A stretch of 64,000 nt of DNA from a phage: the sequence record PV467749.1. One strand, 5' to 3'. A program made the translations under genes and the position numbers. Below the pieces are notes generated by a model, which saw only the letters and a list, made by a program, of their open reading frames with translations, did not search any database and had not been told where the DNA came from. Shown here piece after piece: positions 26,725 to 49,995 of this stretch (position 1 is the first letter of the stretch; every line of letters starts with the position of its first letter).

Positions 26725-27756
26725 TTATAGTGATCTGTAAATTTGGATTAGAAGATTTTTATCGAACATAGGTGAATCAATTTCCATGATTTGTTGTAAC
26801 ACAATCTCATCAACTGACTCAGTACTTTCAAAGCTTTCACCATCTTCAATAAGTTCTTTGATACTTTGCTTGCTAGTAACAACGTTAAACTCACGAATGT
26901 TATAAAGTTTAGTAAAAGTATCACGAATAAAACTAATCTCATCAGTAGTGATAGCAATATCAACTTGAACCTTTGAAATAGTATTGTCTTGAAGATAATA
27001 ACTTGGATCTGTTAATAGTTCTGAAAGTGTAAATGTTCTATATTTTGGTGCTTCTGACCAAGAATGGAAAGTTGGTTCTTTACCATGTTCTAAAATCATC
27101 ACACCTCTTGCATCATCCCATGTATCAGAAAAGTTATGTGGGAAACAGTTACCTGTGTAAATTACACGAGTTCCTTTGGATGTTGTTTTTGCTTGTCTCT
27201 TGTGGAAATGCCCACTAAAAACATACTCACAACCACCAAAAGAACCTTCAGTCTCTTTACCATGATCTGGCATCTCAACCATTTTATTGAGCAAGTAGCC
27301 AGGTAACTCTAAGTGACCAAAAACATACTTACTTTTAAGTTGAGGTAGAACTTTGTATTCATCTTCAATCATAAATGGAATGAAAGTACAATCATCAAAT
27401 GTTGTGATTTCATTAATGAACTCGATGTTCTCATAAACTTGTGCCATATTAATACTAGTAATGTCACGTTTATTTTTATGATACATGTCATGGTTCCCAA
27501 CTAAGAAGTAAACCTTATCAAAGTTGTCATTTAGTAATTGTAGAATTTGTAAACCATAGTTTAATGTTTGAATGTTAATATTACTGCGGTTATGGAAGTA
27601 ATCTCCCATAAACACGCATACAGTAATACCATTTTTCTTAGCAAGTTCAATCATAAACTTGATGAAGTTCAAACAATCTTCGTTGTGCTGCTTGCTGTTA
27701 TTCTTTAATCCTAAATGAATATCAGTAAATGTAATTGCTTTATCAAATAGAGCCAT
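26725..27756 (-). CDS. recombination/repair nuclease subunit, SbcD/Mre11-like phosphoesterase (T4 gp47-like)
   Basis: N-terminal FTDIHLG and GDYFH, GNHD phosphoesterase motifs; start moved from TTG to ATG (MALFDK) with AAAGGAAA RBS. Confidence 0.9.
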   Translation of the reverse strand: MALFDKAITFTDIHLGLKNNSKQHNEDCLNFIKFMIELAKKNGITVCVFMGDYFHNRSNINIQTLNYGLQILQLLNDNFDKVYFLVGNHDMYHKNKRDITSINMAQVYENIEFINEITTFDDCTFIPFMIEDEYKVLPQLKSKYVFGHLELPGYLLNKMVEMPDHGKETEGSFGGCEYVFSGHFHKRQAKTTSKGTRVIYTGNCFPHNFSDTWDDARGVMILEHGKEPTFHSWSEAPKYRTFTLSELLTDPSYYLQDNTISKVQVDIAITTDEISFIRDTFTKLYNIREFNVVTSKQSIKELIEDGESFESTESVDEIVLQQIMEIDSPMFDKNLLIQIYRSL

Positions 27757-28582
27757 CTTCGTTTTTCCTTTCAATCATGTTCATTTCAATTTCGATTTGA
27801 CGAGTGTGTGATGGTGTAAAACCATGCATCTCAAGTAAATCGTCTCGGATGTTACGAACATTTTTCTCACTATTAAGAATCGAACGGAAACTATTGTTAA
27901 CGAACGAAGTATAGTAAGAGAAAGGATTCAACTGTACTGCTGGTTTATCTTTTTTGTAAAGAATACTCTCTTTAAAGAGAAGTGCGTTTTTAACTAATTG
28001 TATTCTGGCATCACCCATCATTTCATCCAAATATGTATAGTTTCTATAGTTGGATTTGTGTGAGATTTCCTCTGCCAGTTTAATGAACATTTTACCTAGT
28101 TCATTAGTGATTTTACCATGAACAGTGCTGAATTCTCCGTCTTCAAGATCACCTTTCCAGTGAGAACGAACGACTTCGTACAGAATACCTTCTTCATCTA
28201 CAATGTAATGTTTGAATGGTTCAAAATTAACTCTTGTATCTGCTGGGATATGTTCATCGGTAATTACACGAATAACCACCTCATCGATAGGTACATCAGT
28301 CAGTACTAAATTGTGCTCATCTGCGTATTCCTTCGCTTTCTTCGCACTCATACCTTCTTTTTCACGAATTGCATCAAGCATTTCATTGTTGAGACGTTTA
28401 ATACGTGCTGCTTTAGCTTTATCTAAAAGTTCTGCTGTGATTTCGGATTCATCAAAAACGATATAATCGTACATACTGTAGCACTTATCAAGTAACCAGC
28501 AATATGAGATTTTACTTTTTTGTATCTCACGAAGTAAATCAGCATTGTTAAGATACTTTTTACGCTTCGGCCTATTTGTCAT
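27743..28582 (-). CDS. late-transcription sigma factor (T4 gp55-like) with large internal insertion
   Basis: KYLNNADLLREIQKSK vs T4 gp55 KYNYVNNKELLQAIIDWK; NPFSYYTSFVNNSFRSILNSEKN vs [23 protein letters not shown]; start at ATG (MTNRPKRKK) with GGAGAG RBS. Confidence 0.8.
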   Translation of the reverse strand: MTNRPKRKKYLNNADLLREIQKSKISYCWLLDKCYSMYDYIVFDESEITAELLDKAKAARIKRLNNEMLDAIREKEGMSAKKAKEYADEHNLVLTDVPIDEVVIRVITDEHIPADTRVNFEPFKHYIVDEEGILYEVVRSHWKGDLEDGEFSTVHGKITNELGKMFIKLAEEISHKSNYRNYTYLDEMMGDARIQLVKNALLFKESILYKKDKPAVQLNPFSYYTSFVNNSFRSILNSEKNVRNIRDDLLEMHGFTPSHTRQIEIEMNMIERKNEDGSI

Positions 28583-28639
28583 TATTTCAACTCTCCATGT
28601 TTTAAATCCAATAGGTACATTCCTTGTACCATCAATGTT

Positions 28640-28668
28640 ATTATAGCACCAAAAACGTCTTTGTCCCA
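28640..28668 (-). promoter_or_regulatory. sigma70-like promoter with extended -10 (TGCTATAAT) upstream of gp55-like gene
   Basis: Minus strand gggacaaagacgtttttggTGCTATAAT; same GTGCTATAAT -10 context as rnh promoter. Confidence 0.45.
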
Positions 28669-28670
28669 CG

Positions 28671-28678
28671 TATAAATA
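28671..28678 (+). promoter_or_regulatory. T4-type late promoter TATAAATA for baseplate operon
   Basis: cacgTATAAATAcatc about 35 nt upstream of ATG 28714; divergent from gp55 promoter. Confidence 0.65.
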
Positions 28679-28713
28679 CATCAAATGTTCCCTTCTTATG
28701 GAGAATCAAAAAG

Positions 28714-29445
28714 ATGATTGATCGTAGAATCCGATTAAGACCTAAAACCGCAGGTGCTAACTATGTGTATGGTGATTTTGGCAACAGTTCAGAGCCAACA
28801 TTGCTGTCGTTTCTGCGTCCAACAAATGGTTTGGTTTGGACTGTAACCCCAACTGTAACTGAACAAAGGTCGGTTCAATATGAAACACAGTCCCCTATAC
28901 ATACTAACAGTAACTACAACAACTACAAGAATACAACAAACACAATTTTCACTATCCAAGGTGAGTTTTATGCAAACACTGCTGCTGAAGCAATGTATGC
29001 ATTGGCTTGTGTTCATTTTATTCGTTCCGTGTCCTTAATGGACTTTGGTCGTCAAGCAGCATCTGCTAATAATCCCGAACTAGCAATTGCAGGTGCACCA
29101 CCGCCAATTTTACTATTAAGTGGGTATGGTCGTTATACATATAATGATATTCCTGTTATTTTGAAAGCATATAATTTTACATATCCAAATGATGTTTCTT
29201 ACATTCAGGTTCCATTGAATAGTAGTGATAGTACTTTTAATTTATCTGATATGGATAGTCGTCAATTCTTCGAACAGCTTAGAAGTACTGGATATATGAA
29301 TCCACAAGATGAGGTATGGGTTCCACAGAAAATATCTGTAATGCTTCAACTTGAAGAACAACCAACATCTGATTACATGACTAAAAAGTTCAACCTAAAT
29401 GCATTTAAGCGTGGTGAACTATTACGTAATGGAGGATTTATCTAA
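28714..29445 (+). CDS. putative baseplate protein
   Basis: Start at ATG (MIDRRIRL); TATAAATA about 35 nt upstream; first gene of baseplate operon; family not determined. Confidence 0.6.
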   Translation: MIDRRIRLRPKTAGANYVYGDFGNSSEPTLLSFLRPTNGLVWTVTPTVTEQRSVQYETQSPIHTNSNYNNYKNTTNTIFTIQGEFYANTAAEAMYALACVHFIRSVSLMDFGRQAASANNPELAIAGAPPPILLLSGYGRYTYNDIPVILKAYNFTYPNDVSYIQVPLNSSDSTFNLSDMDSRQFFEQLRSTGYMNPQDEVWVPQKISVMLQLEEQPTSDYMTKKFNLNAFKRGELLRNGGFI

Positions 29446-29759
29446 TGTCCAATTATAGTCAATACTCTCCTTATGCAAAGGTTAAACAAACGTGGTATCT
29501 TGGTTACAATTTACCACGTGATATGGTTCCTGCTGATACTGACGACTTCTATGTAATTCCATTGAAGTATGAGCATCAACCTTGGCGTTTAGCATACGAA
29601 ATGTATGGTAATGAACGTCTGTATTATGTATTTGCCCTATTGAATCCTGATATATTAGGAGAAGACCCAATATACAATTTTAATAGTGGTATCACAATTC
29701 GTGTTCCCTCAAATCAACGAGTGCAAAACTATTTGAACGGTACTCGTAACATAGGTTAA
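29445..29759 (+). CDS. hypothetical small baseplate-operon protein
   Basis: ATG overlapping upstream stop; 104 aa. Confidence 0.55.
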   Translation: MSNYSQYSPYAKVKQTWYLGYNLPRDMVPADTDDFYVIPLKYEHQPWRLAYEMYGNERLYYVFALLNPDILGEDPIYNFNSGITIRVPSNQRVQNYLNGTRNIG

Positions 29760-32039: not shown

Positions 32040-34703
32040 ATGGCAGATACAAGTAAGAAATATGCCCAACAACAGTTGGGTCGTTTTGACCCTTCGTATC
32101 CACAACTAGCAACCGTGATGGATAACCGTGACCCAACTAAATCCGGTAAGCTAAAAGTGTGGATTCAAGGTTCACAAAGTGATAAAAATTCAAAAGAGTC
32201 ATGGATTGAAGCATCATACATGTCTCCATTCGCTGGTAAAACTCCAGGGATACCAAGTGCTGATGCTTATGGTCAATATCCAAAGGGATATGGTTTTTGG
32301 GCGGTTCCACCTGATGTCGGATGTACTGTTGTTGTTATATTTGCACAAGCAAGAACATTCCAAGCGTATTGGATTGGTTGTGTTTATGACCAACGTATGA
32401 ATACGATGGTTCCTGGGATGGCTACTGAAATAAGCAATTATGCAGGTACTGATATGCCATTACCCGTAACTGATTATGACCGTAATACAATTTCTACCAG
32501 TACTCAAGACAAATATGCAAACGTTCCAATTATTGCAGGTCTGAAAAAACAAAACTTACTTTATGATGAGGAAGCGGGTGTTGCTAACCGTAGTAGTACT
32601 CGCCAGACCACCAGTACTGTTTATGGTCTTTCCTCACCTCGTGGTAACAGTTTTATTATTGATGATGGTTACACAGAAGAAGAATTAACAGCACCTACAT
32701 GGGATCAAGATCCAGATGGTTATCAGGATACCCAATTCAATAACCCAGTGAACGATACTCGTGTTGGTTCTCGTAAAAATGAAGGCGTTGTAATTAAAAC
32801 ACGTAGTGGTGCACAGTTGTTGTTATCTGAAGCCTCTGGTGATGTTCTTTTAATTAACCGTGATGGTACTGCACGTATTAAATTCACTGGTGAAGGTGAT
32901 ATTGAAATGCACTGTGATAAGAATATTAACATTCGTGCAGGTCAAGATATTAACATGGTTGCTGGACGCTCATATAATATTGAAAGTGGAGCAGACTTCA
33001 ATGCTCGTGTTGGTGCAAACACTAAACTAGATTTGGTTGGTGCATTGGATGCTAAAGTTGGTGGTCAGGTTGTTATTAACGCTGGAGCAGATTTACGTTT
33101 AGTAACAGCAGCTTCATTACGTATGCAAAGTGGTAGCAGTACTGATATAACTGCTGGTTCTAATGCGTCAATCTCTGCTGCTACCAGTGCTAATCTTATT
33201 GGTTCTTCATCAGCTATTATTAGTGGTGGTGGTCAAACCCTTACTGTTAACAGTGGTGGTAATAGTGGTACTGCTGAATTTAATGCACCAAACTTCCGCA
33301 CCCCATCTGCTGGCTTGAATGATCATATACATGATATATCGGCTTGGGTTGATGCAGAGAATCACGGCAGTACTGTTGAACCTCCACGTCAAGGTGGTGG
33401 TAGTGGGAATAGTGAATCCCCAGTTCAACCTGAACCTGCTAATGATGTAGCTCCAACTTTAGCTCCAGTACAGGACACTGAAGCAATTCAATATGTAAAT
33501 TATACAACAGAAACAGAACAAGTTCAAACACAAGATTTAATGACTTCTGATCCTAGTATGACTGGTTATAGCATTACTTATGAAGGTCTTCATATGTTCA
33601 TGCCGTGTAGTGGAACCATTCGCCAATACGGTTATTGGGGGAAAGGTGTCCCGACTAGTGGTGGTGGTAAAGCTGATAGAAGTGGCTGGGAAATACAGTG
33701 CAAGGGTGATGTTGTAGCTCCAGATGGCGGTGTAGTTGTTATCACTAATGGTGCTTTATTGGTTCAACATAAGTCTGGATATAAATCTGTATTTTATAAT
33801 ATTCAATCAGATTTGCTCAATAAAGACGTTGTTCAAAAAGGTCAAGTTATCGGTAAAGCTAATGGTGTTATTCAATTTGAAATAAGAGTCACCTCTGCCA
33901 ACGTACTAGGATTTAGTGGTTCTGTTGACCCTGGATTATTCTATGCATCCCAGACTGGTACAGGTTCTGAAGCGGGAAATAAAACATTAATTGCAGGACA
34001 AGCAACGAACCAAGCAGCACCGAAAGCTGTTGTTCAACCTTCTGTTGATAGTGATGAATTAGTTGTAACAACTAAAATTAAAACTATCGGTACTGGGTAT
34101 TCTCAACGTGGTTCTCGTCATGTCCCTCGTCGTAGAAGAACACAACGTTCAGGTGGTACTCCAGCACCTACTGCACAAGAATCATACAATGTGGGTAATG
34201 TTGATAAGACTGCAATTGATTGGAAAGTTGTTCCGGGTGATTCACAATTTATTTCTGAATTGAAAGAATATGAAGGAACAATGGCGTATCAACAAGCTAA
34301 AGGATATTACCGCAATGGTAAATTTTGGAGATATTTGGATAGTCGTGGATTCCCAACTATTGGTTACGGTCACTTGATTGTTGGTGGTGAAAACTTCTCT
34401 GGTGGGATTACCGAACAGGAAGCCAATGATATGTTGGTGCGTGATAGTAGTAAGGCTATATATGACGCAAAATCCATTTACGCTTCTTATAAGATGAAAA
34501 CACCTTACATGGCACAACAAGTTCTATGTCAAATGGTATTCCAGATGGGTAAAGGTGGTGTAATGAAATTTAAGTCAATGCTATCTGAAATGGCTAAAGG
34601 TAACTACAAGCAAGCTGCTGCTCAAATTCGAAATTCAGCTTGGTATCGTCAAACTACACGCCGTGCTGAATTAATGGCACGTAGATTAGAGGCATGTCAA
34701 TAA
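32040..34703 (+). CDS. baseplate hub/puncturing protein (T4 gp5-like) with C-terminal GH24 lysozyme domain
   Basis: N-terminal OB-like region (KLKVWIQG...GCTVVVIFA) resembles gp5 N-domain; beta-helix-like Ser/Gly/Ala repeats; C-terminal CQMVFQMGKGGVMKF...SAWYRQTTRRAELM matches T4 lysozyme INMVFQMGETGVAGF...SRWYNQTPNRAKRV. Confidence 0.9.
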   Translation: MADTSKKYAQQQLGRFDPSYPQLATVMDNRDPTKSGKLKVWIQGSQSDKNSKESWIEASYMSPFAGKTPGIPSADAYGQYPKGYGFWAVPPDVGCTVVVIFAQARTFQAYWIGCVYDQRMNTMVPGMATEISNYAGTDMPLPVTDYDRNTISTSTQDKYANVPIIAGLKKQNLLYDEEAGVANRSSTRQTTSTVYGLSSPRGNSFIIDDGYTEEELTAPTWDQDPDGYQDTQFNNPVNDTRVGSRKNEGVVIKTRSGAQLLLSEASGDVLLINRDGTARIKFTGEGDIEMHCDKNINIRAGQDINMVAGRSYNIESGADFNARVGANTKLDLVGALDAKVGGQVVINAGADLRLVTAASLRMQSGSSTDITAGSNASISAATSANLIGSSSAIISGGGQTLTVNSGGNSGTAEFNAPNFRTPSAGLNDHIHDISAWVDAENHGSTVEPPRQGGGSGNSESPVQPEPANDVAPTLAPVQDTEAIQYVNYTTETEQVQTQDLMTSDPSMTGYSITYEGLHMFMPCSGTIRQYGYWGKGVPTSGGGKADRSGWEIQCKGDVVAPDGGVVVITNGALLVQHKSGYKSVFYNIQSDLLNKDVVQKGQVIGKANGVIQFEIRVTSANVLGFSGSVDPGLFYASQTGTGSEAGNKTLIAGQATNQAAPKAVVQPSVDSDELVVTTKIKTIGTGYSQRGSRHVPRRRRTQRSGGTPAPTAQESYNVGNVDKTAIDWKVVPGDSQFISELKEYEGTMAYQQAKGYYRNGKFWRYLDSRGFPTIGYGHLIVGGENFSGGITEQEANDMLVRDSSKAIYDAKSIYASYKMKTPYMAQQVLCQMVFQMGKGGVMKFKSMLSEMAKGNYKQAAAQIRNSAWYRQTTRRAELMARRLEACQ

Positions 34704-34716
34704 ATATTTCAGTACT

Positions 34717-34724
34717 ATAAATAA
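34717..34724 (+). promoter_or_regulatory. T4-type late promoter TATAAATA for endolysin
   Basis: atttcagtacTATAAATAataatgagg about 17 nt upstream of ATG 34741. Confidence 0.7.
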
Positions 34725-34740
34725 TAATGAGGAAATCTTT

Positions 34741-35229
34741 ATGAGTAAATGGGAAATCAAAAATACCGACGAACAATTTTTTAAAGAAATTAAAGAATTT
34801 GAAGGTACTATTGCGTATCAGAAAAAACTTGGTTATTTTAAAAATGATAAGTTTTGGGTATATAAAGACAGTCTAGGTCTTGATACCATTGGTTACGGTC
34901 ACCTTGTACTTAAGGGTGAAAGTTTCAAAAATGGACTCACTGAAGCAGAAGCTGATGCTCTCCTTATAAAAGATGCTCAGACCGCTTACAATGACGCAAA
35001 ATCAATCTATGATCAATTTGGAATGACTGCTCCAGTACAGGTTCAGCGTGTATTGTGGTTTATGGTGTTCCAAATGGGTAAATCAAAAGTTTTAAATTTC
35101 AAAAAAGCGATGGCTGCTCTCGGTCGTGGTGATTATAAAACTGCTGGTAAAGAAATGCGTGATAGTTCGTGGTACAAACAAACCACATCCAGAGCGGAGA
35201 AGATGGCTCGCATCGTCGAATCCGTATAA
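34741..35229 (+). CDS. endolysin, T4-lysozyme-like (GH24)
   Basis: EFEG...DTIGYGH...WFMVFQMGKSKVLNF...SSWYKQTTSRAEKM; RBS GAGGA; TATAAATA about 17 nt upstream of ATG. Confidence 0.9.
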   Translation: MSKWEIKNTDEQFFKEIKEFEGTIAYQKKLGYFKNDKFWVYKDSLGLDTIGYGHLVLKGESFKNGLTEAEADALLIKDAQTAYNDAKSIYDQFGMTAPVQVQRVLWFMVFQMGKSKVLNFKKAMAALGRGDYKTAGKEMRDSSWYKQTTSRAEKMARIVESV

Positions 35230-35244
35230 TAAAGGAAACACATA

Positions 35245-35640
35245 ATGGCAATTGTTTTTAAAGGTTTTTCAACTCCAGTAGTTGGAAGAACTGAAACATT
35301 GTATGACAGTGAATTGGTTCGTCAGGATTTAATGAATCATTTCAATACAAAAAAAGGTGAACGTGCATTTGATGCTGATTATGGGTTCATTGCGTGGGAT
35401 TTGCTATTTGAATTGGATGGTTATAATACAATCAACCTTTTGGAAGCAGATGCCCGTAGAATTATTAGCTTGGACCCACGTTTAAGCTTAAAGAAACTTC
35501 AAATATCAAGAATTGAGTACGGTTATCAGATGGATATAGTACTTGAATATGTTGTTCTCAATACTCTTGAAGAATTAACTATAGTTTTTGATGCAAGAAG
35601 TAACAACAGAATGGCTACCTATTCTGTATCATCTTTGTAA
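35245..35640 (+). CDS. baseplate wedge protein (T4 gp25-like)
   Basis: GERAFDADYGFIAWDLLFE vs T4 gp25 GSRPFDPEFGCDLSDQLFE; 131 aa; terminator downstream. Confidence 0.85.
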   Translation: MAIVFKGFSTPVVGRTETLYDSELVRQDLMNHFNTKKGERAFDADYGFIAWDLLFELDGYNTINLLEADARRIISLDPRLSLKKLQISRIEYGYQMDIVLEYVVLNTLEELTIVFDARSNNRMATYSVSSL

Positions 35641-35645: not shown

Positions 35646-35675
35646 AAAAGCACTCTTCGGGGTGCTTTTCTTTTT
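35646..35675 (+). terminator. intrinsic terminator after gp25-like gene
   Basis: AAAAGCACTC-TTCG-GGGTGCTTTT with UUCG-type tetraloop, then T-run. Confidence 0.8.
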
Positions 35676-35712
35676 GGATAAATATTTCTATATATAATTT
35701 ATAGGATGATGT

Positions 35713-36477
35713 ATGAAATATGCAACAACCAGATCAACAAAATACAAATTTGTAACCAACGCCATTAGAGTGCATGGTATGCGTTATGATTATAGTATGG
35801 TTAAATATCATAATGCTAAAACAAAGGTGTGGATCGGATGTGAGAAGCATGGGTTTTTCCTACAAACACCAAATGACCATACATGTGGCAAAGGATGCAT
35901 GGAATGCTCGGTTGAGTATAATGCGAATCGTCAGAAAAGTCCACAGAACTTTATAAATTTTCTTAATAAGGCTAATTTAAAGTTTAGAAATAAATTTGAT
36001 TATAGCACAGTAGAATATGTTAATAATAAAACTCACATATCCATAATATGCCCAACACATGGGTCTTTTTTACAAAGACCTGATAATCATTTGTCAAGTA
36101 AGTATGGTTGTGAGAAATGTATGATTGAATCAACGCAATCAAAAGCAGTAACTGATATTGAAAAAATGATATCTTTCACTAATTATGTTAAAGAAAAGCG
36201 TTTTGATGATTGTAGAAACATATTAACTTTGCCATTTGATTTTTATATTGAAGATTTAAACTTGTGTATTGAATATGATGGTGAACAACACTTTCGATGT
36301 TCTGAACATTGGGGTGGTGACAAATCGCTAAAACAAACTCAACACAATGATAAAATTAAAAACACGTACTGTGCTGACCATGATATTAACTTACTTCGTA
36401 TCAAATACGATGAAGATCATATCATCGTACTAAAAAAGTACTTTTATGATAATTTTAACATAATATTAAAGGATTAA
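35713..36477 (+). CDS. homing-endonuclease-like protein: two zinc-ribbon-like modules + C-terminal PD-(D/E)xK (DUF559/Vsr-like) nuclease domain
   Basis: Repeats YDYSMVKYHNAKTKVWIGCEKHGFFLQTPNDHTCGKGCMEC and FDYSTVEYVNNKTHISIICPTHGSFLQRPDNHLSSKYGCEKC; C-terminal LCIEYDGEQHF...LLRIKYDE. Confidence 0.8.
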   Translation: MKYATTRSTKYKFVTNAIRVHGMRYDYSMVKYHNAKTKVWIGCEKHGFFLQTPNDHTCGKGCMECSVEYNANRQKSPQNFINFLNKANLKFRNKFDYSTVEYVNNKTHISIICPTHGSFLQRPDNHLSSKYGCEKCMIESTQSKAVTDIEKMISFTNYVKEKRFDDCRNILTLPFDFYIEDLNLCIEYDGEQHFRCSEHWGGDKSLKQTQHNDKIKNTYCADHDINLLRIKYDEDHIIVLKKYFYDNFNIILKD

Positions 36478-39987: not shown

Positions 39988-40023
39988 AATCAAATGAATG
40001 AACGAATTATATGGAGTCCAAAA

Positions 40024-43000
40024 ATGACTAATAATTTTAAGTTTCAACCTACACAGATGGCTGAAGCAGTACAGAAGAAGCTTTTCATAAAAAGATTGCC
40101 TGAGTGGATGCAAGGCTTAGAAGATATTCAGAAAGTCAGTGATGATGTTATCCAACAATGGTTTAATCCGGCTGAAAACGAATTAGTTGACGGCTACATT
40201 GGTGACATGGGTTCTCCGGCAGCAGCAGGGAACATCTTCTTACACGAGTCAACAGTCGCACGTCAACTATATCAGTTGTCCACTGCGTATGTCTCAAGAA
40301 ATGATGACTCCAGCATTCGTTCAATTCAATTTTATGATGATCTAGTTGGCTATATGAATCATTACGGGGCACTAACCGAAAATGAAAGCCGTTTGTTTAA
40401 TGGTAAGTTCTATTCATGGACCCCACCAATTAACCCTAACAAAATGAACAACTACAGTTCATATCTATGGGATTCCAAGAATAGCTATAATATCGCAACT
40501 CCAGATTATATTGTAATGGAACGTGGTGCAGAAAATGGAAACACTTGGTCACTACAAAACTTCTGGTACACATTAGGTGAAACTTTAGAAGATGGTACAA
40601 TCCTAACTGAAGAACTAATGCAAGATTCCCGTTTTGTTCGTGCTCGTGCTCCAATTATCGAATACAATAAAAATATCGAACTAATGAACTACGGTACTAA
40701 ATTCCGTGGGACAGTTGATTTGTTCTCTGATATTATTAAACCTGAAGATATCGTACAAAAAGATATTAACAGCGGTATACGTATTGATGGTATTATTCCA
40801 CAAGATGGTATGCGTATTCTTTTCACCAGTATTGGTAACAATGGTGAAAACAACCGAATTTATAAAGTATATGTTAAACGTATGCAAGATGGAACACGTG
40901 TGTATGGTCTAGCATTAGACCCAGACGAAGAATCTGAAAGCCGTCCGAGTGGTGAACCACAAGATGGTGACGTAGTTCTTATTATCAAAGGTAATGAATT
41001 TGGTAACAGTTCCATGTATTGGGACGGTTCTCATTGGATTCAAGCACAGTCTAAAACTTCTGTGAACGTATTTCCACAATTCCAATTGTATGACCGTAAT
41101 GGTGTTAAACTAAACAACACTACTACCTATCCATCAAGTACTTTTACTGGTTCTTCATTATTTGGTTTTAAAATTAACTATAATTATGCAACCGATAGCG
41201 TTTATGGTTATAACATTGAACTGGGTGATTACAATTATTACACCTATGAGAATTTCCTACAATCAACTCGTTATACCTACGAGCATTTGGGTGTGGAAGT
41301 TGAAATTGATGGACTATATTACTATAACGTAATTGGTGAAGGTAATACAATGAACCTAGAAACTGATTGGGTTCGTAGTACTGAATACTCCAAACAATAT
41401 GTTAAACAAACTCCACAGGTTGAACGTACAGTAATGTTCCGCGTGTTCAGTACTGTTTATGACATGGAAAGTTTCAAAGATCCAGTTGAAGGAATGTATG
41501 CTTATGTAATTGAAGTTGACAGAACTTATCAATATTACAAAGCAGAACGTGAAACATATCTTGATTGGCATGTTATCGTTGGTGATGGGGTACAAAGCGT
41601 TAAGTACAATCATACATTTGAATTGGCACAAAAAGTACTAGATAATTCTGATGATATTATCGAACTAGTTGTTGATGGTGTGGAAATAAAAGAATACACC
41701 AAAACTGTAGTTAATAATCAAGTACAAAGTATTACAATTGATAGCTCTGTTGATTTGGATGAAGATTCTGTTGTACAAATAAGAACTTATAGTAGCACTA
41801 TCACTCCTAATAAAGAGTTGGGTGCATATGAAGTTCCAATTAACCTACAAAATAACCCATATAATTCAAACATTGAATACATCAATCAAGGTGATTACAC
41901 CCTGCACTTCCAAGATATTATTCAAAAGAATATTACATCTGGTTCTGCTGATGACTTTAACAATTACGAAGAACGTTTGGCTGCTGGTTTGGTTAATAAT
42001 GGTGTAGGCACTAAAATTATTCAAAACGAAGCGTCCATGTTACCACTAATGGCACATACCGCTAATGAAGATATTGATTTGTTTGAATCAATCATGTTTA
42101 TGCAAGCAGAATACTTCCGCTTCATTAACAAGTTCAACACTCAAATGCTTCGTTTGTATGAAGAAGACCCAAGTGCTTTTCTTGGTAATAGTGCATCAAA
42201 CATCGTAGATGCGATTCTAACAGCTATTAATATGGGACGTGATAGTTCATTCCCATTCTACTATGACAACGTTGCAAGCACTGCTGGGTTTATTCGTGCA
42301 TTTGTCCCACCAACTCCACAGTTCTTGGGTATTTTGCAAGCTTATACACCACAAAAAGCAACATTCTTAACTGCTGGTAGTAAATCTAGCTGTTATAATA
42401 TCAGTCATACTGGTGTTATTTCAAAAGCATACCGTGTTATCAATGGTGTTGATAAAATGGATGACGTAGTTTTTGAATTGGAAAATCGTATCTTTAATAG
42501 TATTGACCTTACTTTCAAGGATATTGATTATAAACCAGTACTAAACAGTGAAGACCTATTCCCAACTCCATATTTCACTGGTACTGATTATAGTGCAGAA
42601 GAAAAGAAAACTCTATTACTACGTGGTTACATTAACTTCACAGCAACCAATGGTATTAGTAACAGTACTCATGATTATGATGCAAATAACTGGAGAACTT
42701 GGAACTATACTGGTAGTTATTATGTTGTTGATGGTCAACGTACTGAAATTCCTGCTCGTGGTTCATGGCGTGCAATCTATACTGACCAATATGGCACATA
42801 TCGTCCAGCAACCCATCCGTGGGAAATGATGGGCTTCTCTCAACGTCCTACTTGGTGGAACCAAGAATACGAACCAACCGCAGTTCAAGTTGGTGAACGT
42901 GAGGGTGATGTTGTTTATGTGTATGAAGCACTAGTAATGAATGAAAATGGTGATTTGGTCCCAAGTGGATTGTGGGATATTGATGGTACTATCGGTGACA

Positions 43001-46000
43001 GCAGCACTGGTACTATTTTGTCCGGTGAACGCCGTGGTCAATATGACAAATACAAGCGTTTCGGTGTACAGCCATTTAAAATCACTAAGACTGGCGAGAA
43101 AACCAGTACTGGTATTGATATTTGTGAAGTTGAGTATATTGCACCTGAAGTTTTAGGTCTTGTTAGTGGTAATTTAGATCATCGTGCAGAACCGTGGGCT
43201 TATGGTGACATGGGTGACATGGAATTCACTTACATGAACACTGCGATGTTTGCTTATGACCAAATGCTTCTTCTATACAAAGCAAAACCAGCACAGTTTG
43301 CAAACTATTACTGGGATACCCGTAATGATAACCTTAAACCAGTTTATACTGATGGTTCACAGTTCCTTTATGGTGAAACCCGTAAGCGTCTAAACTTTGA
43401 CAGTGCTACATTAGTACATGGTGAGAAAAATACCCGTACTATCGGTTATCAAATGTTTGTTAGTGACTATTTGATGTATCAGAATAAGAACATTACCACC
43501 AAATACGGTGACGTTGTTCGTTCTTCTTATGTCAATGTCGCTCACAAAATTGGTGGCTTTACTAAAGCAGACCAATTGACATTCACTGCTAAATCTTTCG
43601 GTTTGATTTCACAAGAAAACCAAACTATCGGTCTAGTTCGTTCCAATAACATTCGCGATGAGCAAATGAGTGCAGTAAAAATTACTTGGAATGGTAGTGC
43701 ATATCAAATTGATGGTTATGATTTAGTTGGTGCTAAATTTAAATATAAAATTCCAGTTAAAAATGGAAGAAAAGTAACTCTTAAATTGGAAGACAGAACT
43801 GTTGTTCATTACAATGAATGGAAATCTGAAGGTACATTAGAATATGGTAAAATATTCAATACATACCAAGAAGTTTATACTTTCATTTGTGGATATGGTG
43901 AATATCTAAAAGAACATGGCTGGATTTTTGAAGATGTAAATGATAGTGGTGCTCAACAAGACTGGACAACTATTGCTAAAGACTTTGTTATTTGGAGTCA
44001 GAATAATTTAAGTACTGGTGAGTTCATCTCCTGTACTCCAAGTGCAGCTAATGCTAAATTTGGTGCAGATTTTGGTTCAGTTCAATCTGTTACACAGAAC
44101 AGTGGTGGTGTTTGGTCACTACTCGATGATGAAAACCAAGGTATCCGTCAATATGAAATCGAAACTTCGCGTATCGGTAACGTATTCACAGTGAGAACTA
44201 CATCTGAATCACAAAAACGTATGGCGTTGATTCGTTTGAGCCTAAGTTCATATGAACACGCAGTTGTTTTTGATGATAAAACTATCTTTGGTGATTACAT
44301 TTACCAACCAACTTATGGTGCTATTCAAGAATTGATTAAAATGTATGGTTACATTACTGGGGCATGGACTGGTCGCCTACAAGCACCTGGTTTCATTATC
44401 CTAGAAGCAGGAACTTTACCATCATTTGAAAAATTAGTAACTGATTTTGAATTATATTATAATAGTGAAACTCCTGTGAGTGATGTTCAGCTTCAAGAGT
44501 TATCAAATCACTTGATTGGCTATCAAACTCGTGATTATCTACAACGTATGATTAGTAGTGATGTTAGTCGTGTTGATTTCTATAAAGGATTCATTCATGA
44601 CAAAGGTACTAACCAAGTAATGGAAAAAGTACTACGCGTTTCTAAATCTTACGACACTGATGAATATAAAGCACTACAGGAATGGGCATTTAAGATTGGC
44701 ACTTATGGTAATATCAATGGTAAGAAAAATCTACAATTTAAACTAATCAATGACCAATTTAAACAACAACCACAGATGGTTTCGTTTGATGTTAATGCTA
44801 CATCAAATGGTACTGGTAATGGTATTGTTTATTACGGTGAACAAGGGGTTGACTCACGCTGGATTACTCGTCCAAATGGTAAGTTTTCATTCCCAATGCG
44901 TAGTGGAAGAAGTGAGAATATCCAACTTCCAGACATTGGCCCAGTAACACTAGATGAAATTTCATACGTTACTAAAGATTTCAGTACTGCATATAATGAT
45001 CGTATCAATTATATGAATAACAGTGGTGAAATACCAGATTCTGTATGGATGTTTAAAGATGGTAATGATTTGTGGAATATTTTCGAACTAGTAGACACTG
45101 AAGTTGAGATGCTCTCTATCGTTCCAATTGAAAATACCGATGTATATGCAGAACAATTCTGTAAAGTAACTCTAAGTGATGATATCCCACTAAATGATGG
45201 TGATTATTATTACTTTGTTGATGAAACTAACTTTATGCCAGATACATTGACTATAGAAAGTCAATATTATACTGCGGGTAATGACCCTAGAGTTATGGTA
45301 GTTCCGTTTGACACTTCAATAACTATTGACTTCACTGATCCTGATACTCGCCCACGCTTGTATCGTTATGTTTCACGATTCAGTACTGAAGAGATGCGTC
45401 AGGAATACATTGACAGAAAATATAGTTTTAAAGCTCCACAAAGTACTTTGTTTGACCGCCCAACCACATATGATGAGCGTACTAACATTACTGCGTTGTA
45501 CCTAAACGTGTTTGACCCAATCAACGGTGTTATTCCTGGTGCAGCGATGCAGAACGTTACCTACACATCTCCAGTTGACCCAGCACAATACAACAGCAAT
45601 GGTGAATTGATTCAAGCATGGGGTGCTGATAAAGTTGGTCAGGTTTGGTGGAACACCAGCACTGCTTTCTACTTAGATTACACTCGTGCAATCTATGATG
45701 CTGATGGTAATGTGGATGTTGATGCAACAAATGAATATAAACGTTATAACTGGGGCAGATTGCTACCGCACAGTACTGTTGATGTTCTTGAATGGGTATG
45801 TTCGCCAGTGGAACCATATAACTGGGACAAATACTGTAAAGACGTTGCTAACAAAAATAAAAACAATACTATGTACCTACCAAGCGGAACCGCATTGGAA
45901 GATAATTATAGTACGTTCTTAGAATATGATAGCACAACTGATACTTATGTTACAAAATACTATTTCTGGGTTCGTGATACAATCTATGTACCACCATTGC

Positions 46001-49000
46001 ATTCCAGAACTAAATCTTGTACTGATATTGCTCGTATTATTAAAGAACCAGCACAGCTTAACATTCCTTGGTTTGCACCAATCAATGAAAGCTCGTTCAT
46101 TCTAAGTAATATGCAATTTGAAGTCAACGATGACACAAGTATTTTAACTGTTTCTTATTACATGGATAATACTGAAGTTATTAAACATGACCAGTATCAA
46201 TTATGTAAAGAAGGTGATAGCTATAACTTCAATCCATCAATCTGGACTTCTATGTGGAATTCTATGATTGGTCAAGAAACTACTGAATCAGGAACTGTTA
46301 TTGATTTACTATATCCTTTAGTACCAAACGGTTTAGGTTCTAATAAGACTTGGTTCCAAGATGTAATTGAAGCTCGTAGAAACTTTGTAGAAAGTGCAAA
46401 TAACTATTATCGCTCACAGAATATAACAACTAACACTGTTCTAATGGACGAAGTGTTTAATGTTAAAACTACTGAAGTTAACCCGAATGAAGTATCATAT
46501 CGTGTACTAACTTACAATAGTGAATTAGTCATTGCACCTGAAAGTGACAAGTTCAAAGAAAACGACGCAGTACTAGTAAGTACTAGTGGTGTATTACCTA
46601 ACCCACTATCAACTAGCTCTGTATATTTTGTGCATATTGATGCTAATGGTTATATTCATCTAATGAATAGTCCATCAAGTGCTGGTAGTGTGGTTACCAT
46701 TACATTGGAAAACCGTGGTGAAGGTCAACAGAAAATGATTAAACAATCAGACTATGTTGAAGCACTAGGAACTTCATTGGACATGACCCAGTACTGGTCA
46801 CTAGCAGATTGGTATGATATTGGTTACGATAAAAATACTGCATATACACAAGAATCCAGCCTAGAAGATGCAAACACTAAGAACTATCAAGTTGGTGACA
46901 TTATCAGAATTACAGATGTTGATGGCATCTGGACATTGTACATTAAAGCACAATCACGTGATTCAGTTTACTGGAAAGCAATTGGTCGTGAAAATAGTAC
47001 AGTTGAATTGAATGATATGTTATACGCTGACTATACAGTTCGTGATGCTAATGGTTCGTTGAGTAATCGTGAGATTAACGTTCGTAAAGCACTAGCTTTA
47101 TTGAAGAACTCATTCGACTTACATCAGAGTGAAATTGTGTTTGATATGGTTAAGTATGTTCACGTAGAACAAAGCGTTGTTGATTGGGTATTCAAAACAT
47201 CTTACATTTATATTGTAGGTTTAGAACAATCATTAGTACAGAACTATTCCAACGACAACTTGATTAATCAAATCGTTGAGTACTTTGAAGAAGTTAAACC
47301 ATATAGAACTAAGATTCGTTCCCAGATTGAACAGAAAACATCAGATGATGATTTAATTAAAGGTTTGTGTAATGATTTAGATCCTAATGGCTATATATTT
47401 GCAGATGGGACTTGGGTTAAAACGGAAAAAGACATTTGGGATTATGAATATGCTCAATTCAATGAGGTAACTCAACGTTGGGAGCAAGTTGGTGAATTGC
47501 CAAGTGATTTCGTAACACCTAATCGCCGTTTCCAAGAAATTGATGTTATCATGCACTACGACAACACTCAATGTAAACCAAATGATAATTTGGCAAGTGT
47601 TGATGTATTGGAAGAAGTGAATAAGAAATATCAATCTAATGCACAAGATGTTGTTAGTAATTTTGAATTACAACGTTACAAATATACATTCCCAGAATAC
47701 AGTGATGAAGATTTCGACCTATTGGTTGCTTATCAGATGCAATTGTATTACCCAGAATTGAACGTAACTCTAGGGATTGCTTACGGTGTTAACCAATGGT
47801 ATGCAGACCATGCAGATGATTTGGTAGCAACCGCAGAATTCACAGAAACGTTGAATCGTGTATATAAAGAATCAACACAAAATGAAATGTTTAATGACGT
47901 AAATCATTACGTTCAGTATAACACACTCTCTAACCGTTTGAAATTGTACACAGGTGCAGATGATGAAGTAATTCATGATGAAGTTGGATGTGGATTTAGT
48001 GGGTTAACCTATGATGATAATCCAAGCACCAGACTACCGTTTGGTTATGCATCCAGTACTGATTATAACTTTGGTTACTTTGAAGTTAGTAGTGAGTTGT
48101 ATAAAAAGTATGTTTCTTTAATTAAAGAAAACAATACTACTGCAACTGATGATGAAGTTAGAATTATACTTGAAGTTGAATATGGTGTTTATTCATATCG
48201 CCATGTAGATGAAGATGGAAATCAACGATTCTACAATGACGCAATTCATGTATTGTCCGGTATGCGTGGTTTGTATGACAAAGATGCTACCGACCATTAT
48301 GAAAAGGCTGAAGAAATACTAAGTAGAATGCCTATTGATATTCATGCATTTACTATGATGCCACGAAAATATGTTTATGTTAATGTTAATGGTGTATACG
48401 AGAGTATCCCAGATGACCAAAGCATTGATGATTTCATGGAAGACAAATTCATAACTGACGGTCAACTAGTTCAATTGGCAGAAATAAATCTTGATGACTT
48501 ACCTCTTGATAGAAATAACCCAATGTACAGTGATTATCAGCACATCCTAGATAGCATCACCGATGCTAAGTACTACGATGATATGAATGCATTTGATAAC
48601 CTAGCACTTGAATCACAAACTTCCGAGTTAAAATGGGAAGTTGAAGGTGACGAAGTAGATCCGTACATAATCGACATTTCTGATATTAACCCATCAGGAA
48701 GAAAGATTGGTCAGATTCGCTTCACAGTTGATGGTTATGGATTCAATAGTGTTTCACTAGTTCAATTGAGAGACAATAGTAGATATAAAACTGAAGGTAT
48801 GGTTATTATCAACCCTTATAAAACAACAGAAGCAATTGTTAGTATTCCTTCTTACGCTAAGATTGAAAATGATATTAGTAAATCATACAGTAAGTATGAT
48901 GAAAAATACTTCTATAAAATTAAATCAATTGTTAGTGATACAGAAGCTGAAGTAATTGACAATACCCTATCTGATGGTGATAAGGTTATGATATTCACAA

Positions 49001-49995
49001 CTGATGGTGAAGATTATGTGAGATACCAAAACAATGCATGGGAAACCATCTTGAGTGTATCAAAAATCAAAACTGACACCACACCAACCTTGTACACAGT
49101 AAGAAACACTGCGAACGGAACTGTAGAACTACTAGATAGTACTGGAGTTGTACTTCGTTATGATAACATCACTAAACAACAACAAAATGAACCAGCAATA
49201 CCTCTAGCATTGAACATCGTTCGTATTAGAACCTTTGCTGATCCAGAATTCTTGGTTGATGGTGTTAAGTTGTATGAAACAAATAGAAACTATGCTATCG
49301 ACGCAATGAACTATGAAGTATTCTACGACACAACACTATACGGTGGTTCTTATAATGATGGAATTACACCAGATGACGTTGATGTTTGGGTAGTGTCTAA
49401 CGAGATATTTGAAGTTGATGGTGTTACCATTGATAACGGATATAACTTACCAATTACTGGTGCAGGTGTTCTTAGTGAGTTAGTGAGAACCAAAATGACT
49501 GATAGTGTGGAAATTAACGTGTTCGAGTATGATGTTGGTATTATTCAACCAGTACTGAATACTGAAGGGGTATGGGAATATGCATATCCACTAGTTAGTG
49601 ATACATATATTGGTGTAGTTGGTGGAACAGTAACTAACATTACTGCTATCAGTGAAGAAAATGCTACTTATGTTTCACAACCAGATTCAGTTAGTCCATA
49701 TAGTGTTACTAATAATGTTCTATCTGGTGCTGGTGCAAGTATGAATGATATTATTTCTCTTGGTTTTGAAAAAGTTGAAGTACGATTTGCAAATAACTTA
49801 CTCCGTGGGGTAATGTATAGTGCAGAACACGACTTTAAAGAGAATGTGACATATTCATTTAATGGCTTGAACTTAGGTAAAGTTAATTTACTAAAACGTT
49901 ATAGTGTTAACAGTTATCCAATCGAACTATCTGTTTACTCCGATAGTTTGCAAATAAGTGGTAATGACATTAAAAATCTATTAGAAGTTAAATAA
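40024..49995 (+). CDS. giant virion-associated protein (~3,320 aa), probable baseplate/tail component
   Basis: Uninterrupted ~10-kb ORF; start chosen at ATG (MTNNFKF) with GGAG RBS and CATAAATA late-like box about 36 nt upstream; track ORF starts 30 nt earlier without RBS. Confidence 0.85.
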   Translation: MTNNFKFQPTQMAEAVQKKLFIKRLPEWMQGLEDIQKVSDDVIQQWFNPAENELVDGYIGDMGSPAAAGNIFLHESTVARQLYQLSTAYVSRNDDSSIRSIQFYDDLVGYMNHYGALTENESRLFNGKFYSWTPPINPNKMNNYSSYLWDSKNSYNIATPDYIVMERGAENGNTWSLQNFWYTLGETLEDGTILTEELMQDSRFVRARAPIIEYNKNIELMNYGTKFRGTVDLFSDIIKPEDIVQKDINSGIRIDGIIPQDGMRILFTSIGNNGENNRIYKVYVKRMQDGTRVYGLALDPDEESESRPSGEPQDGDVVLIIKGNEFGNSSMYWDGSHWIQAQSKTSVNVFPQFQLYDRNGVKLNNTTTYPSSTFTGSSLFGFKINYNYATDSVYGYNIELGDYNYYTYENFLQSTRYTYEHLGVEVEIDGLYYYNVIGEGNTMNLETDWVRSTEYSKQYVKQTPQVERTVMFRVFSTVYDMESFKDPVEGMYAYVIEVDRTYQYYKAERETYLDWHVIVGDGVQSVKYNHTFELAQKVLDNSDDIIELVVDGVEIKEYTKTVVNNQVQSITIDSSVDLDEDSVVQIRTYSSTITPNKELGAYEVPINLQNNPYNSNIEYINQGDYTLHFQDIIQKNITSGSADDFNNYEERLAAGLVNNGVGTKIIQNEASMLPLMAHTANEDIDLFESIMFMQAEYFRFINKFNTQMLRLYEEDPSAFLGNSASNIVDAILTAINMGRDSSFPFYYDNVASTAGFIRAFVPPTPQFLGILQAYTPQKATFLTAGSKSSCYNISHTGVISKAYRVINGVDKMDDVVFELENRIFNSIDLTFKDIDYKPVLNSEDLFPTPYFTGTDYSAEEKKTLLLRGYINFTATNGISNSTHDYDANNWRTWNYTGSYYVVDGQRTEIPARGSWRAIYTDQYGTYRPATHPWEMMGFSQRPTWWNQEYEPTAVQVGEREGDVVYVYEALVMNENGDLVPSGLWDIDGTIGDSSTGTILSGERRGQYDKYKRFGVQPFKITKTGEKTSTGIDICEVEYIAPEVLGLVSGNLDHRAEPWAYGDMGDMEFTYMNTAMFAYDQMLLLYKAKPAQFANYYWDTRNDNLKPVYTDGSQFLYGETRKRLNFDSATLVHGEKNTRTIGYQMFVSDYLMYQNKNITTKYGDVVRSSYVNVAHKIGGFTKADQLTFTAKSFGLISQENQTIGLVRSNNIRDEQMSAVKITWNGSAYQIDGYDLVGAKFKYKIPVKNGRKVTLKLEDRTVVHYNEWKSEGTLEYGKIFNTYQEVYTFICGYGEYLKEHGWIFEDVNDSGAQQDWTTIAKDFVIWSQNNLSTGEFISCTPSAANAKFGADFGSVQSVTQNSGGVWSLLDDENQGIRQYEIETSRIGNVFTVRTTSESQKRMALIRLSLSSYEHAVVFDDKTIFGDYIYQPTYGAIQELIKMYGYITGAWTGRLQAPGFIILEAGTLPSFEKLVTDFELYYNSETPVSDVQLQELSNHLIGYQTRDYLQRMISSDVSRVDFYKGFIHDKGTNQVMEKVLRVSKSYDTDEYKALQEWAFKIGTYGNINGKKNLQFKLINDQFKQQPQMVSFDVNATSNGTGNGIVYYGEQGVDSRWITRPNGKFSFPMRSGRSENIQLPDIGPVTLDEISYVTKDFSTAYNDRINYMNNSGEIPDSVWMFKDGNDLWNIFELVDTEVEMLSIVPIENTDVYAEQFCKVTLSDDIPLNDGDYYYFVDETNFMPDTLTIESQYYTAGNDPRVMVVPFDTSITIDFTDPDTRPRLYRYVSRFSTEEMRQEYIDRKYSFKAPQSTLFDRPTTYDERTNITALYLNVFDPINGVIPGAAMQNVTYTSPVDPAQYNSNGELIQAWGADKVGQVWWNTSTAFYLDYTRAIYDADGNVDVDATNEYKRYNWGRLLPHSTVDVLEWVCSPVEPYNWDKYCKDVANKNKNNTMYLPSGTALEDNYSTFLEYDSTTDTYVTKYYFWVRDTIYVPPLHSRTKSCTDIARIIKEPAQLNIPWFAPINESSFILSNMQFEVNDDTSILTVSYYMDNTEVIKHDQYQLCKEGDSYNFNPSIWTSMWNSMIGQETTESGTVIDLLYPLVPNGLGSNKTWFQDVIEARRNFVESANNYYRSQNITTNTVLMDEVFNVKTTEVNPNEVSYRVLTYNSELVIAPESDKFKENDAVLVSTSGVLPNPLSTSSVYFVHIDANGYIHLMNSPSSAGSVVTITLENRGEGQQKMIKQSDYVEALGTSLDMTQYWSLADWYDIGYDKNTAYTQESSLEDANTKNYQVGDIIRITDVDGIWTLYIKAQSRDSVYWKAIGRENSTVELNDMLYADYTVRDANGSLSNREINVRKALALLKNSFDLHQSEIVFDMVKYVHVEQSVVDWVFKTSYIYIVGLEQSLVQNYSNDNLINQIVEYFEEVKPYRTKIRSQIEQKTSDDDLIKGLCNDLDPNGYIFADGTWVKTEKDIWDYEYAQFNEVTQRWEQVGELPSDFVTPNRRFQEIDVIMHYDNTQCKPNDNLASVDVLEEVNKKYQSNAQDVVSNFELQRYKYTFPEYSDEDFDLLVAYQMQLYYPELNVTLGIAYGVNQWYADHADDLVATAEFTETLNRVYKESTQNEMFNDVNHYVQYNTLSNRLKLYTGADDEVIHDEVGCGFSGLTYDDNPSTRLPFGYASSTDYNFGYFEVSSELYKKYVSLIKENNTTATDDEVRIILEVEYGVYSYRHVDEDGNQRFYNDAIHVLSGMRGLYDKDATDHYEKAEEILSRMPIDIHAFTMMPRKYVYVNVNGVYESIPDDQSIDDFMEDKFITDGQLVQLAEINLDDLPLDRNNPMYSDYQHILDSITDAKYYDDMNAFDNLALESQTSELKWEVEGDEVDPYIIDISDINPSGRKIGQIRFTVDGYGFNSVSLVQLRDNSRYKTEGMVIINPYKTTEAIVSIPSYAKIENDISKSYSKYDEKYFYKIKSIVSDTEAEVIDNTLSDGDKVMIFTTDGEDYVRYQNNAWETILSVSKIKTDTTPTLYTVRNTANGTVELLDSTGVVLRYDNITKQQQNEPAIPLALNIVRIRTFADPEFLVDGVKLYETNRNYAIDAMNYEVFYDTTLYGGSYNDGITPDDVDVWVVSNEIFEVDGVTIDNGYNLPITGAGVLSELVRTKMTDSVEINVFEYDVGIIQPVLNTEGVWEYAYPLVSDTYIGVVGGTVTNITAISEENATYVSQPDSVSPYSVTNNVLSGAGASMNDIISLGFEKVEVRFANNLLRGVMYSAEHDFKENVTYSFNGLNLGKVNLLKRYSVNSYPIELSVYSDSLQISGNDIKNLLEVK

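Follow-up and report, generated by a model that had tools for sequence, protein, structure and literature searches.

Spike-borne and free-standing GH24 lysozymes in the baseplate module of a Rak2-like jumbo phage: an old and conserved gene pair

Phage T4 has two related GH24 lysozymes, one built into the central spike protein gp5 for entry and the other a free, soluble, late paralogue encoded by gene e. The lysozyme domain of gp5 and T4 lysozyme (T4L) are about 43% identical. Within gp5 the lysozyme follows the OB fold and precedes the beta-helix, and a PAAR protein, gp5.4, caps the tip; gene e lies far from gene 5. The subject of this report is a comparable pair of adjacent genes at positions 32,040 to 35,229 of a 64,000-nucleotide (nt) stretch of phage DNA (sequence record PV467749.1), which as a whole is called the window and which, judged by nucleotide identity, comes from an Asteriusvirus (Rak2-like) jumbo myophage, a coliphage. 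The first gene encodes an 887-amino-acid (aa) hub protein that ends in a GH24 lysozyme domain and the second a 162-aa lysozyme.

The gene pair is already known: over 30 Asteriusvirus genomes in the databases carry its annotation, and in 2017 Buttimer et al. described it for Rak2-like jumbo phages, identifying CBB_238 of phage CBB as gp25-like, CBB_239 as a T4-type lysozyme and CBB_240 as a hub with OB and lysozyme domains (PMC5259590). The gp5 OB domain of CBB_240 is described there as N-terminal and the lysozyme as C-terminal, with a possible M23 domain in the centre, and the difference of this layout from T4 gp5 is noted explicitly (PMC5259590). CBB_238/239/240 and their Rak2-like homologues are the same three genes as those of the window, with no difference in kind, the window protein being closer to those of Escherichia coli phages. 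What is added here is that the M23 domain is degenerate, that an HxH motif in the hub is invariant and that the duplication is ancient. The two genes and the lysozyme domain of the hub are located as follows.

32040..34703, plus strand: predicted central spike/baseplate hub protein, 887 aa, with gp5-like OB fold, beta-helix, HxH motif, degenerate LytM domain and GH24 lysozyme
34221..34700, plus strand: C-terminal GH24 lysozyme domain of the hub, residues 728-887, with catalytic E745, D767 and T773
34741..35229, plus strand: free-standing GH24 lysozyme, 162 aa, with catalytic E21, D43 and T49 and no hydrophobic segment

An earlier note, made from the letters of this stretch, had described an 887-aa hub ending in a T4-lysozyme-like domain with a 162-aa lysozyme next to it; both open reading frames (ORFs) are as it stated, and the peptides that it quoted occur verbatim. 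Its view that the two lysozymes are very similar also holds. Residues 728-886 of the hub align without gaps to residues 4-162 of the small lysozyme, with 80 of 159 positions identical (50%), 70% positives and an E-value of 7e-57 (BLASTP), and the Pfam profile Phage_lysozyme (PF00959) recognizes the hub with 41.6 bits and the 162-aa protein with 37.3 bits, both above the gathering score of 22.3. The similarity between the two sequences is far above chance. Both have the T4-lysozyme fold. Chains of T4 lysozyme and gp5 are matched by phmmer at 1e-9 to 1e-11, and sequence searches of the PDB found no close solved homologue, only lysozyme-domain matches to T4L and gp5. The hub is not described in the cryo-electron microscopy paper on phiKp24.

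The active site is intact in both copies. Hub residues E745, D767 and T773 and residues E21, D43 and T49 of the small protein align with E11, D20 and T26 of T4L, and neither low identity nor a loss of the catalytic Glu or Asp, both of which were checked, was found. In the alignment of 79 hub homologues (36-87% identity, BLASTP), which underlies all hub conservation counts given here, E745 and D767 are each kept in 78 sequences, and position 773 is Thr in 53, Asp in 19 and Ser in four. The catalytic Glu/Asp/Thr set is shared with the T4 pair, as is the combination of OB fold and predicted beta-helix in the spike.

The earlier note had taken the similarity as a sign of recent duplication or gene conversion, and the genes are indeed adjacent, in the same orientation and alignable over 159 residues without a gap, as would be expected of a recent tandem duplication or of copies homogenized by gene conversion. 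The divergence between the copies argues against such an origin. Compared codon by codon, the two lysozyme domains have 56% nucleotide identity, with 60%, 67% and 41.5% at the first, second and third codon positions; no stretch of identical letters exceeds 15 nt, and the 30 nt that match best are 83% identical. The pairwise comparison of substitution rates that the earlier note had proposed gave, by the Nei-Gojobori method, a nonsynonymous rate (dN) of 0.50 and a synonymous rate (dS) of 3.0, which is saturated and lends no support to the word recent.

The grouping of the copies points in the same direction. In a neighbor-joining tree of lysozyme domains, the hub domain of the window pairs with the hub domain of Klebsiella phage K64-1 (98% bootstrap) and the small lysozyme of the window with the small lysozyme of K64-1 (100%). 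The deep nodes are weak (54% for the hub clade, 28% for the small-lysozyme clade), and the metagenomic sequences L006-L008 (L numbers are our labels for the sequences compared) are not resolved in it; because of these poorly supported deep branches the tree cannot date the duplication relative to L006-L008, and the argument rests on synteny. The order hub, small lysozyme, gp25-like gene, gp6-like gene is kept in K64-1, Erwinia phage pEa_SNUABM_47 and Xanthomonas phage XaC1, and also in two metagenomic contigs with hubs that share only 38-43% identity with that of the window, which makes the pair syntenic across Asteriusvirus, Alcyoneusvirus, Eneladusvirus, XaC1 and two metagenomic contigs. Between the two Asteriusvirus clades, dN/dS is 0.056 for each lysozyme copy, and both copies are under purifying selection.

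Taken together, the saturated dS, the low identity at third positions, the grouping by gene type, the synteny and the purifying selection mean that the duplication is old and that both copies have been maintained: it is ancient, conserved across the whole Rak2-like group, and each copy is kept by selection. For the window genome the saturated dS and the orthologue-wise grouping refute recent duplication or gene conversion, and the probability left for such an origin is practically negligible. Occasional exchange may still have taken place in some lineages. Identity between the hub domain and the small lysozyme is 62% in pEa_SNUABM_47 (L004), 52% in the window and 45% in XaC1, and in the lineage of pEa_SNUABM_47 the copies may have diverged more slowly or exchanged some sequence.

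Two departures from the common arrangement were seen at this site. K64-1 (L003:4211-5994) has an insertion of four small hypothetical ORFs, two per strand, that separates the hub gene from the small lysozyme gene. In the metagenomic contig L006 (L006:6001-9004; hub P0080, 40% identical) the gp25-like gene follows directly after the hub and there is no free-standing lysozyme, which means that the small gene was either lost in the L006 lineage or is younger than it.

The two genes of the pair are not the only members of this family in these phages. A tblastn search with the small lysozyme hit each of the six Rak2-like genomes listed at three places, and in the window tblastn found only the two copies described above. 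The third paralogue lies outside the window (gp293c in phAPEC6; 190720-191646 in Ecwhy_1). It is about 300-311 aa long. A hydrophobic segment lies near its N-terminus at residues 12-31 (mean Kyte-Doolittle hydropathy 1.6-2.0 in four of the five phages compared), a LysM-like stretch comes next, and a GH24 domain forms the C-terminus. The same architecture, with a transmembrane segment, a LysM-like region and a C-terminal lysozyme in about 35 kDa, is that of the published endolysin candidates CBB_187, 121Q gp532, Rak2 gp506 and GAP32 gp180 (PMC5259590). The loci of the third paralogue in the sequences compared are given below.

L002:36101-37027, minus strand: third GH24 paralogue
L009:1459-2385 (from Ecwhy_1): third GH24 paralogue
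L010:250-1152: third GH24 paralogue
L011:316-1245: third GH24 paralogue
L012:232-1167: third GH24 paralogue

The third paralogue forms a separate clade in the neighbor-joining tree (100% bootstrap). Glu and Asp of the active site are kept in all three types, as is the Thr apart from rare exceptions; an insertion behind this Glu, about 15 residues in length (EGTxxYQ...G..RNGKF), is common to all three and not present in T4 lysozyme, and all three lack the loop formed by residues 35-55 of T4L. Judged from these sequences, the spike-borne, the soluble and the membrane-anchored GH24 paralogues are members of one subfamily. As a separate observation, the third paralogue was found in 71 phage records, all with hosts of the Rak2-like group, and in four of the five genomes inspected, those with an annotated downstream neighbour, it adjoins a gene resembling a ribosome hibernation factor, annotated as 'ribosome-associated inhibitor A' or 'sigma 54 modulation protein'.

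The hub is covered from end to end by one PHROG family (phrog_13211, 887 of 887 positions), and its AlphaFold model, made for a monomer, has a mean predicted local distance difference test score (pLDDT) of 78.3 with clear domain blocks. Apart from the lysozyme, the following parts were distinguished.

32106..32387, plus strand: OB-fold domain, hub residues 23-116 (Phage_base_V, PF04717, 29.8 bits against a cut-off of 23.8)
32772..33299, plus strand: beta-helix-like repeat region, hub residues about 245-420 (DUF2345, PF10106)
33324..33332, plus strand: HxH motif, H429-I-H431, at the end of the predicted beta-helix (H429 and H431 in 79 of 79 homologues)
33582..34019, plus strand: degenerate M23/LytM-fold domain, hub residues about 515-660 (pLDDT 85-93)
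34089..34220, plus strand: basic disordered linker, hub residues 684-727, GYSQRGSRHVPRRRRTQRSGG... / GYSQRGSRHVPRRRR... (pLDDT 37-47)

Residues 1-240 comprise the OB fold and the N-terminal region. Beyond the beta-helix, H442 is nearly invariant (74 of the homologues), residues 445-476 form a Pro/Gly-rich linker and residues 477-499 a strand and a helix; the basic linker in front of the lysozyme is conserved, with the consensus GYSQRGSRxVPRR. The domain order is therefore OB fold, predicted beta-helix, HxH motif, LytM-like domain and lysozyme, in contrast to the order OB fold, lysozyme, beta-helix of T4 gp5. The earlier note had already placed the lysozyme at the C-terminus after beta-helix repeats, unlike in T4, and the Pfam order of PF04717, PF10106 and then lysozyme bears this out. 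Further differences from T4 are the LytM-like domain interposed between helix and lysozyme and the position of the free copy as the next gene.

In the order of OB fold, predicted beta-helix and conserved HxH the hub resembles the spikes P2 gpV and phi92 gp138, which have an Fe-binding HxH apex. The role of HxH in spike apex domains is treated in a preprint on P2 gpV (bioRxiv 10.1101/2023.02.25.529910), spikes without an HxH apex, such as T4 gp5, bear a PAAR cap, and in tail fibres HxH cages also register trimers. From the sequence of the motif and its neighbours we infer that H429-I-H431 is a histidine-cage, apex-like site. The motif is internal and closes the predicted beta-helix, and hence the LytM-like and lysozyme domains would be a C-terminal extension beyond this apex-like site. 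In P2 gpV, by contrast, HxH is about 12 residues from the C-terminus and forms the tip. The 'evolved' type VI VgrG-3 of Vibrio cholerae differs from the hub in that it is part of a secretion system and ends in a domain other than GH24. One candidate for a PAAR-like cap, the 104-aa ORF at 29445-29759, turned out to be gp53-like and not PAAR (not every small ORF was scanned).

For the region between the HxH motif and the lysozyme, the earlier note had proposed a further domain, at about residues 500-640, of muralytic or lipoyl-like nature. As a guess at the fold this was fair, for a folded M23/LytM-like domain is present; the M23 active site, however, is absent, and the domain is probably no enzyme. 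A profile of residues 497-662 matched the PDB entries of LasA (E 1.3e-6), SpoIIQ (5.6e-6), DipM (9e-5) and EnvC (0.06), and EnvC, SpoIIQ and DipM are also among the top structural matches; the fold is that of M23/LytM. The Pfam profile Peptidase_M23 (PF01551) scores 18.1 bits over residues 550-607, below its gathering threshold of 28.7.

The zinc-binding and catalytic positions of M23 are substituted: HxxxD has become R547 and E551, the His of YxH has become N587, and HxH has become V610-I-Q612, the first two being placed by Pfam profile coordinates and N587, V610 and Q612 by pairwise alignment with the metagenomic spike P0105. Across the family the consensus at these sites reads R...I, D/G/N and non-His, and the full set was found in none of the hub homologues. 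Nonetheless the domain is strongly constrained, with a dN/dS of 0.03. It is best named a degenerate LytM domain, for which binding or docking is a likelier role than catalysis. The spike P0105 itself, shorter at 619 aa and 26% identical in its N-terminal half, bears an M23 domain with unaltered motifs (HPGVD, YGH, HCH) at its end, from which it follows that the muralytic C-terminal 'cargo' of this spike family is modular.

A spike with two enzymatic activities, comparable to phi29 gp13, would result if the middle domain were an active M23 endopeptidase. In phi29 gp13 the M23 domain is catalytically active, and that protein is not a beta-helical spike. In the hub, all canonical zinc and catalytic positions are replaced, non-catalytic LytM factors (EnvC, DipM and SpoIIQ) are among the best hits by structure and by profile, and the Pfam score stays below the gathering threshold, which makes a second active enzyme very unlikely. 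The LytM factors suggest another idea, that the spike is a needle with cargo, whose histidine-cage apex is internal and precedes a strongly conserved but dead LytM regulator of the EnvC/NlpD kind, which would either keep the attached lysozyme inactive until tail contraction or recruit and activate host periplasmic amidases at the penetration point; this is regarded as quite improbable. EnvC, NlpD, DipM and SpoIIQ are bacterial regulators or scaffolds (amidase activation, sporulation channel), whereas the LytM domain described here sits in a phage spike.

The signals around the two genes, and the genes that their interpretation involves, are these.

27743-28684, minus strand: gp55-like late sigma factor gene, divergent from the baseplate operon
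28671..28678, plus strand: TATAAATA late-promoter-like site, 35 nt upstream of the ATG at 28714, which starts the first gene of the hub-containing baseplate operon
34716-34723, plus strand: TATAAATA late-promoter-like site in the 37-nt gap between hub and lysozyme genes, 17 nt before the ATG
4576-4583, 14299-14306 and 15508-15515, minus strand: the other TATAAATA sites of the window (motif scan)
35245..35640, plus strand: gp25-like baseplate wedge protein, 131 aa, 3' of the lysozyme gene (PF04965, 34.7 bits)
35646-35679, plus strand: strong terminator-like hairpin with a 10-base-pair stem, AAAAGCACTC/GGGTGCTTTT, followed by a T run, directly 3' of the gp25-like gene and before an HNH insertion

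The earlier note had credited the small gene with a promoter of its own. A motif of the T4 late type, TATAAATA, does stand in front of it as a putative promoter, upstream of a GAGGA at 34729-34733. Four of the five TATAAATA sites are fully intergenic (P = 9e-5 for at least four of five, given an intergenic share of 6.6% of the window) and each of the five is directed towards a start codon that follows at a distance of 17-58 nt. Among the genes 3' of these sites are the major capsid gene (13079-14254, minus strand), the gene at 14345-15460 (minus strand) and the first gene of the baseplate operon at 28714. The site upstream of the small lysozyme is kept in phAPEC6 and is also present before the K64-1 orthologue, where a ATATAAATA motif lies about 45 nt upstream of the gene despite the four inserted ORFs. 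A similar late motif, ATAAATA, has been reported for phages CBB and GAP32 (PMC5259590). Plausibly, TATAAATA is a T4-like late promoter read by the gp55-like sigma factor.

No terminator-like hairpin was found between the hub and lysozyme genes, and a scan for sigma-70-type promoters remained at background level (36 found against 34.4 expected). The gp25-like gene belongs to the same transcription unit as the 162-aa lysozyme gene. Considering the lack of a terminator between hub and lysozyme, the strong one after the gp25-like gene and the TATAAATA site, the small lysozyme and the gp25-like protein are probably expressed in two ways, by read-through and from an internal late promoter.

Published data on orthologues bear on where the two proteins act. 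Mass spectrometry of phAPEC6 detected the hub orthologue gp241 in virions (7 peptides), and gp242, the orthologue of the 162-aa protein, and gp293 were undetected (PMC7247149); in CBB virions the hub CBB_240 and the gp25-like protein were detected and the orthologue of the small lysozyme was not (PMC5259590). LysUE1 of phage UE-S1, another orthologue of the 162-aa protein, has been cloned and is muralytic in vitro, more strongly so with ethylenediaminetetraacetic acid (PMC12805682). In the window protein the maximum 19-residue hydropathy is 0.84, inside the catalytic core, and there is no N-terminal hydrophobic segment; as a soluble, predicted muralytic protein free of an export signal it agrees in this respect with a canonical holin-dependent endolysin.

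The reading that we favour, at a probability of roughly 0.6 for the whole of it, is that of a trimeric central spike with an entry muramidase and an old soluble paralogue that serves as an auxiliary endolysin. That the hub is a central spike with an entry muramidase is most likely, considering the presence of its orthologues in virions, its intact active site and the analogy with T4 gp5. The 887-aa protein would be a trimer, whose N-terminal OB fold docks to the baseplate hub and whose beta-helix forms the needle, closed by the invariant HxH as the presumed histidine cage at an apex-like site. The Pro/Gly-rich linker would then lead to the C-terminal 'cargo', a catalytically dead LytM fold, most likely a peptidoglycan-binding or docking module and not an enzyme, followed by a predicted active GH24 muramidase. 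Upon tail contraction the virion-borne muramidase would open the peptidoglycan locally for the tail tube.

The 162-aa protein, an old paralogue of the lysozyme domain of the spike, would be soluble and not packaged. Its gene would be transcribed late, together with that of the gp25-like protein, both by read-through of the baseplate operon and from a TATAAATA late promoter of its own, and the protein could act from the cytoplasm after the membrane is breached, as a T4 e-like holin-dependent or auxiliary endolysin. The third paralogue, with its membrane anchor and LysM-like stretch, would also act in lysis. We infer the lysis role of the small protein; calling it 'the endolysin' is unproven, the published endolysin candidate being the third paralogue, and the literature searched held no genetic data on whether the 162-aa protein is needed for host lysis.

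Several observations weigh against this reading. As to the spike, the HxH motif is 456 residues away from the C-terminus and is followed by two folded domains, whereas known apex domains have the motif near their end; furthermore, the hub was modelled as a monomer, and the geometry of the trimer tip and the placement of the C-terminal domains can only be conjectured from such a model. As to the promoter, TATAAATA is not over-represented in the window (5 found against 7.5 expected), and it is missing in XaC1, L007 and L008, where the gap between hub and lysozyme genes is 3-12 nt. As to the small lysozyme, its gene is dispensable in the L006 lineage, since it is missing at the site there, and no holin or spanin gene is located next to it, its neighbours being the spike, gp25-like and gp6-like genes; a dedicated membrane-tethered LysM lysozyme may be sufficient for lysis. 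The gene also holds its place inside the baseplate module across very divergent relatives, and this conserved position could mean a role linked to the baseplate and not to lysis. Finally, that shotgun mass spectrometry missed a small protein of low copy number says little against its presence.

Some of these points lead to the main rival, in which the 162-aa lysozyme is a low-copy virion or baseplate-assembly protein, docked for instance on the dead LytM domain of the hub, and works in entry instead of lysis. Its gene lies between the spike and gp25-like genes in a strictly conserved position in most relatives and shares a transcription unit with the latter, degenerate LytM domains are known protein-docking modules, as the top structural matches EnvC, SpoIIQ and DipM illustrate, and another paralogue is already available for lysis. 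Against a baseplate role, the protein was undetected in the virion proteomes of both phAPEC6 and CBB, in which the hub was detected (in CBB also the gp25-like protein), the gene is absent at the site in the L006 lineage, and the hub already has an active-looking lysozyme domain of its own. The evidence cannot separate an endolysin from a baseplate role; the latter is judged unlikely on balance and still carries real weight.

With respect to its relatives, the region is 99.7% identical in nucleotide sequence to Escherichia phage vB_Ec-M-J, a deposited and annotated genome, and 97.3-99.6% identical to nine further coliphages (including BF17, fEgEco12, EC.P1 and Ecwhy_1); identity to the PBECO4/121Q/phAPEC6 clade is about 84%. 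The genomes of the 99% clade are 350-385 kb in size and belong to the genus Asteriusvirus, and the hub protein is 100% identical to cluster P0001. Upstream, the baseplate module consists of the divergent gp55-like gene, a 243-aa virion protein, the gp53-like gene, a 751-aa virion protein and the hub, and it continues with the small lysozyme, the gp25-like protein, an HNH endonuclease, the gp6-like wedge protein and a 3333-aa virion protein.

Two neighbours of the gene pair may be mentioned for themselves. The 254-aa HNH/homing endonuclease ORF at 35713-36477 (plus strand; phrog_559, E 2e-55), which separates the gp25-like gene from the gp6-like gene, is missing from this position in every relative of at least 97% identity (Ecwhy_1, vB_Ec-M-J, BF17, EC.P1, fEgEco12 and others). 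Genomes of the other Asteriusvirus clade (121Q gp584, JNE01, JP4) have it in this position, with 84-86% nucleotide identity; such a sporadic spread is typical of a mobile homing endonuclease. The 3333-aa product of a single ORF at 39994-49995 (plus strand) matches the PHROG virion structural protein phrog_10938, and its phAPEC6 orthologue, gp245 (382 kDa), was detected in virions (PMC7247149).

What does this locus add to the picture of the Rak2-like phages? The added value is modest: an old duplication whose copies are under purifying selection, three GH24 paralogues, a degenerate LytM domain and an internal, invariant HxH motif. The degeneracy of the LytM domain and the internal position of HxH raise the question of where three copies of C-terminal domains of about 45 kDa each could fit on a sharp needle. 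If the improbable case of a LytM-regulator spike were true, phage tails would have a novel means of breaking through the cell wall.

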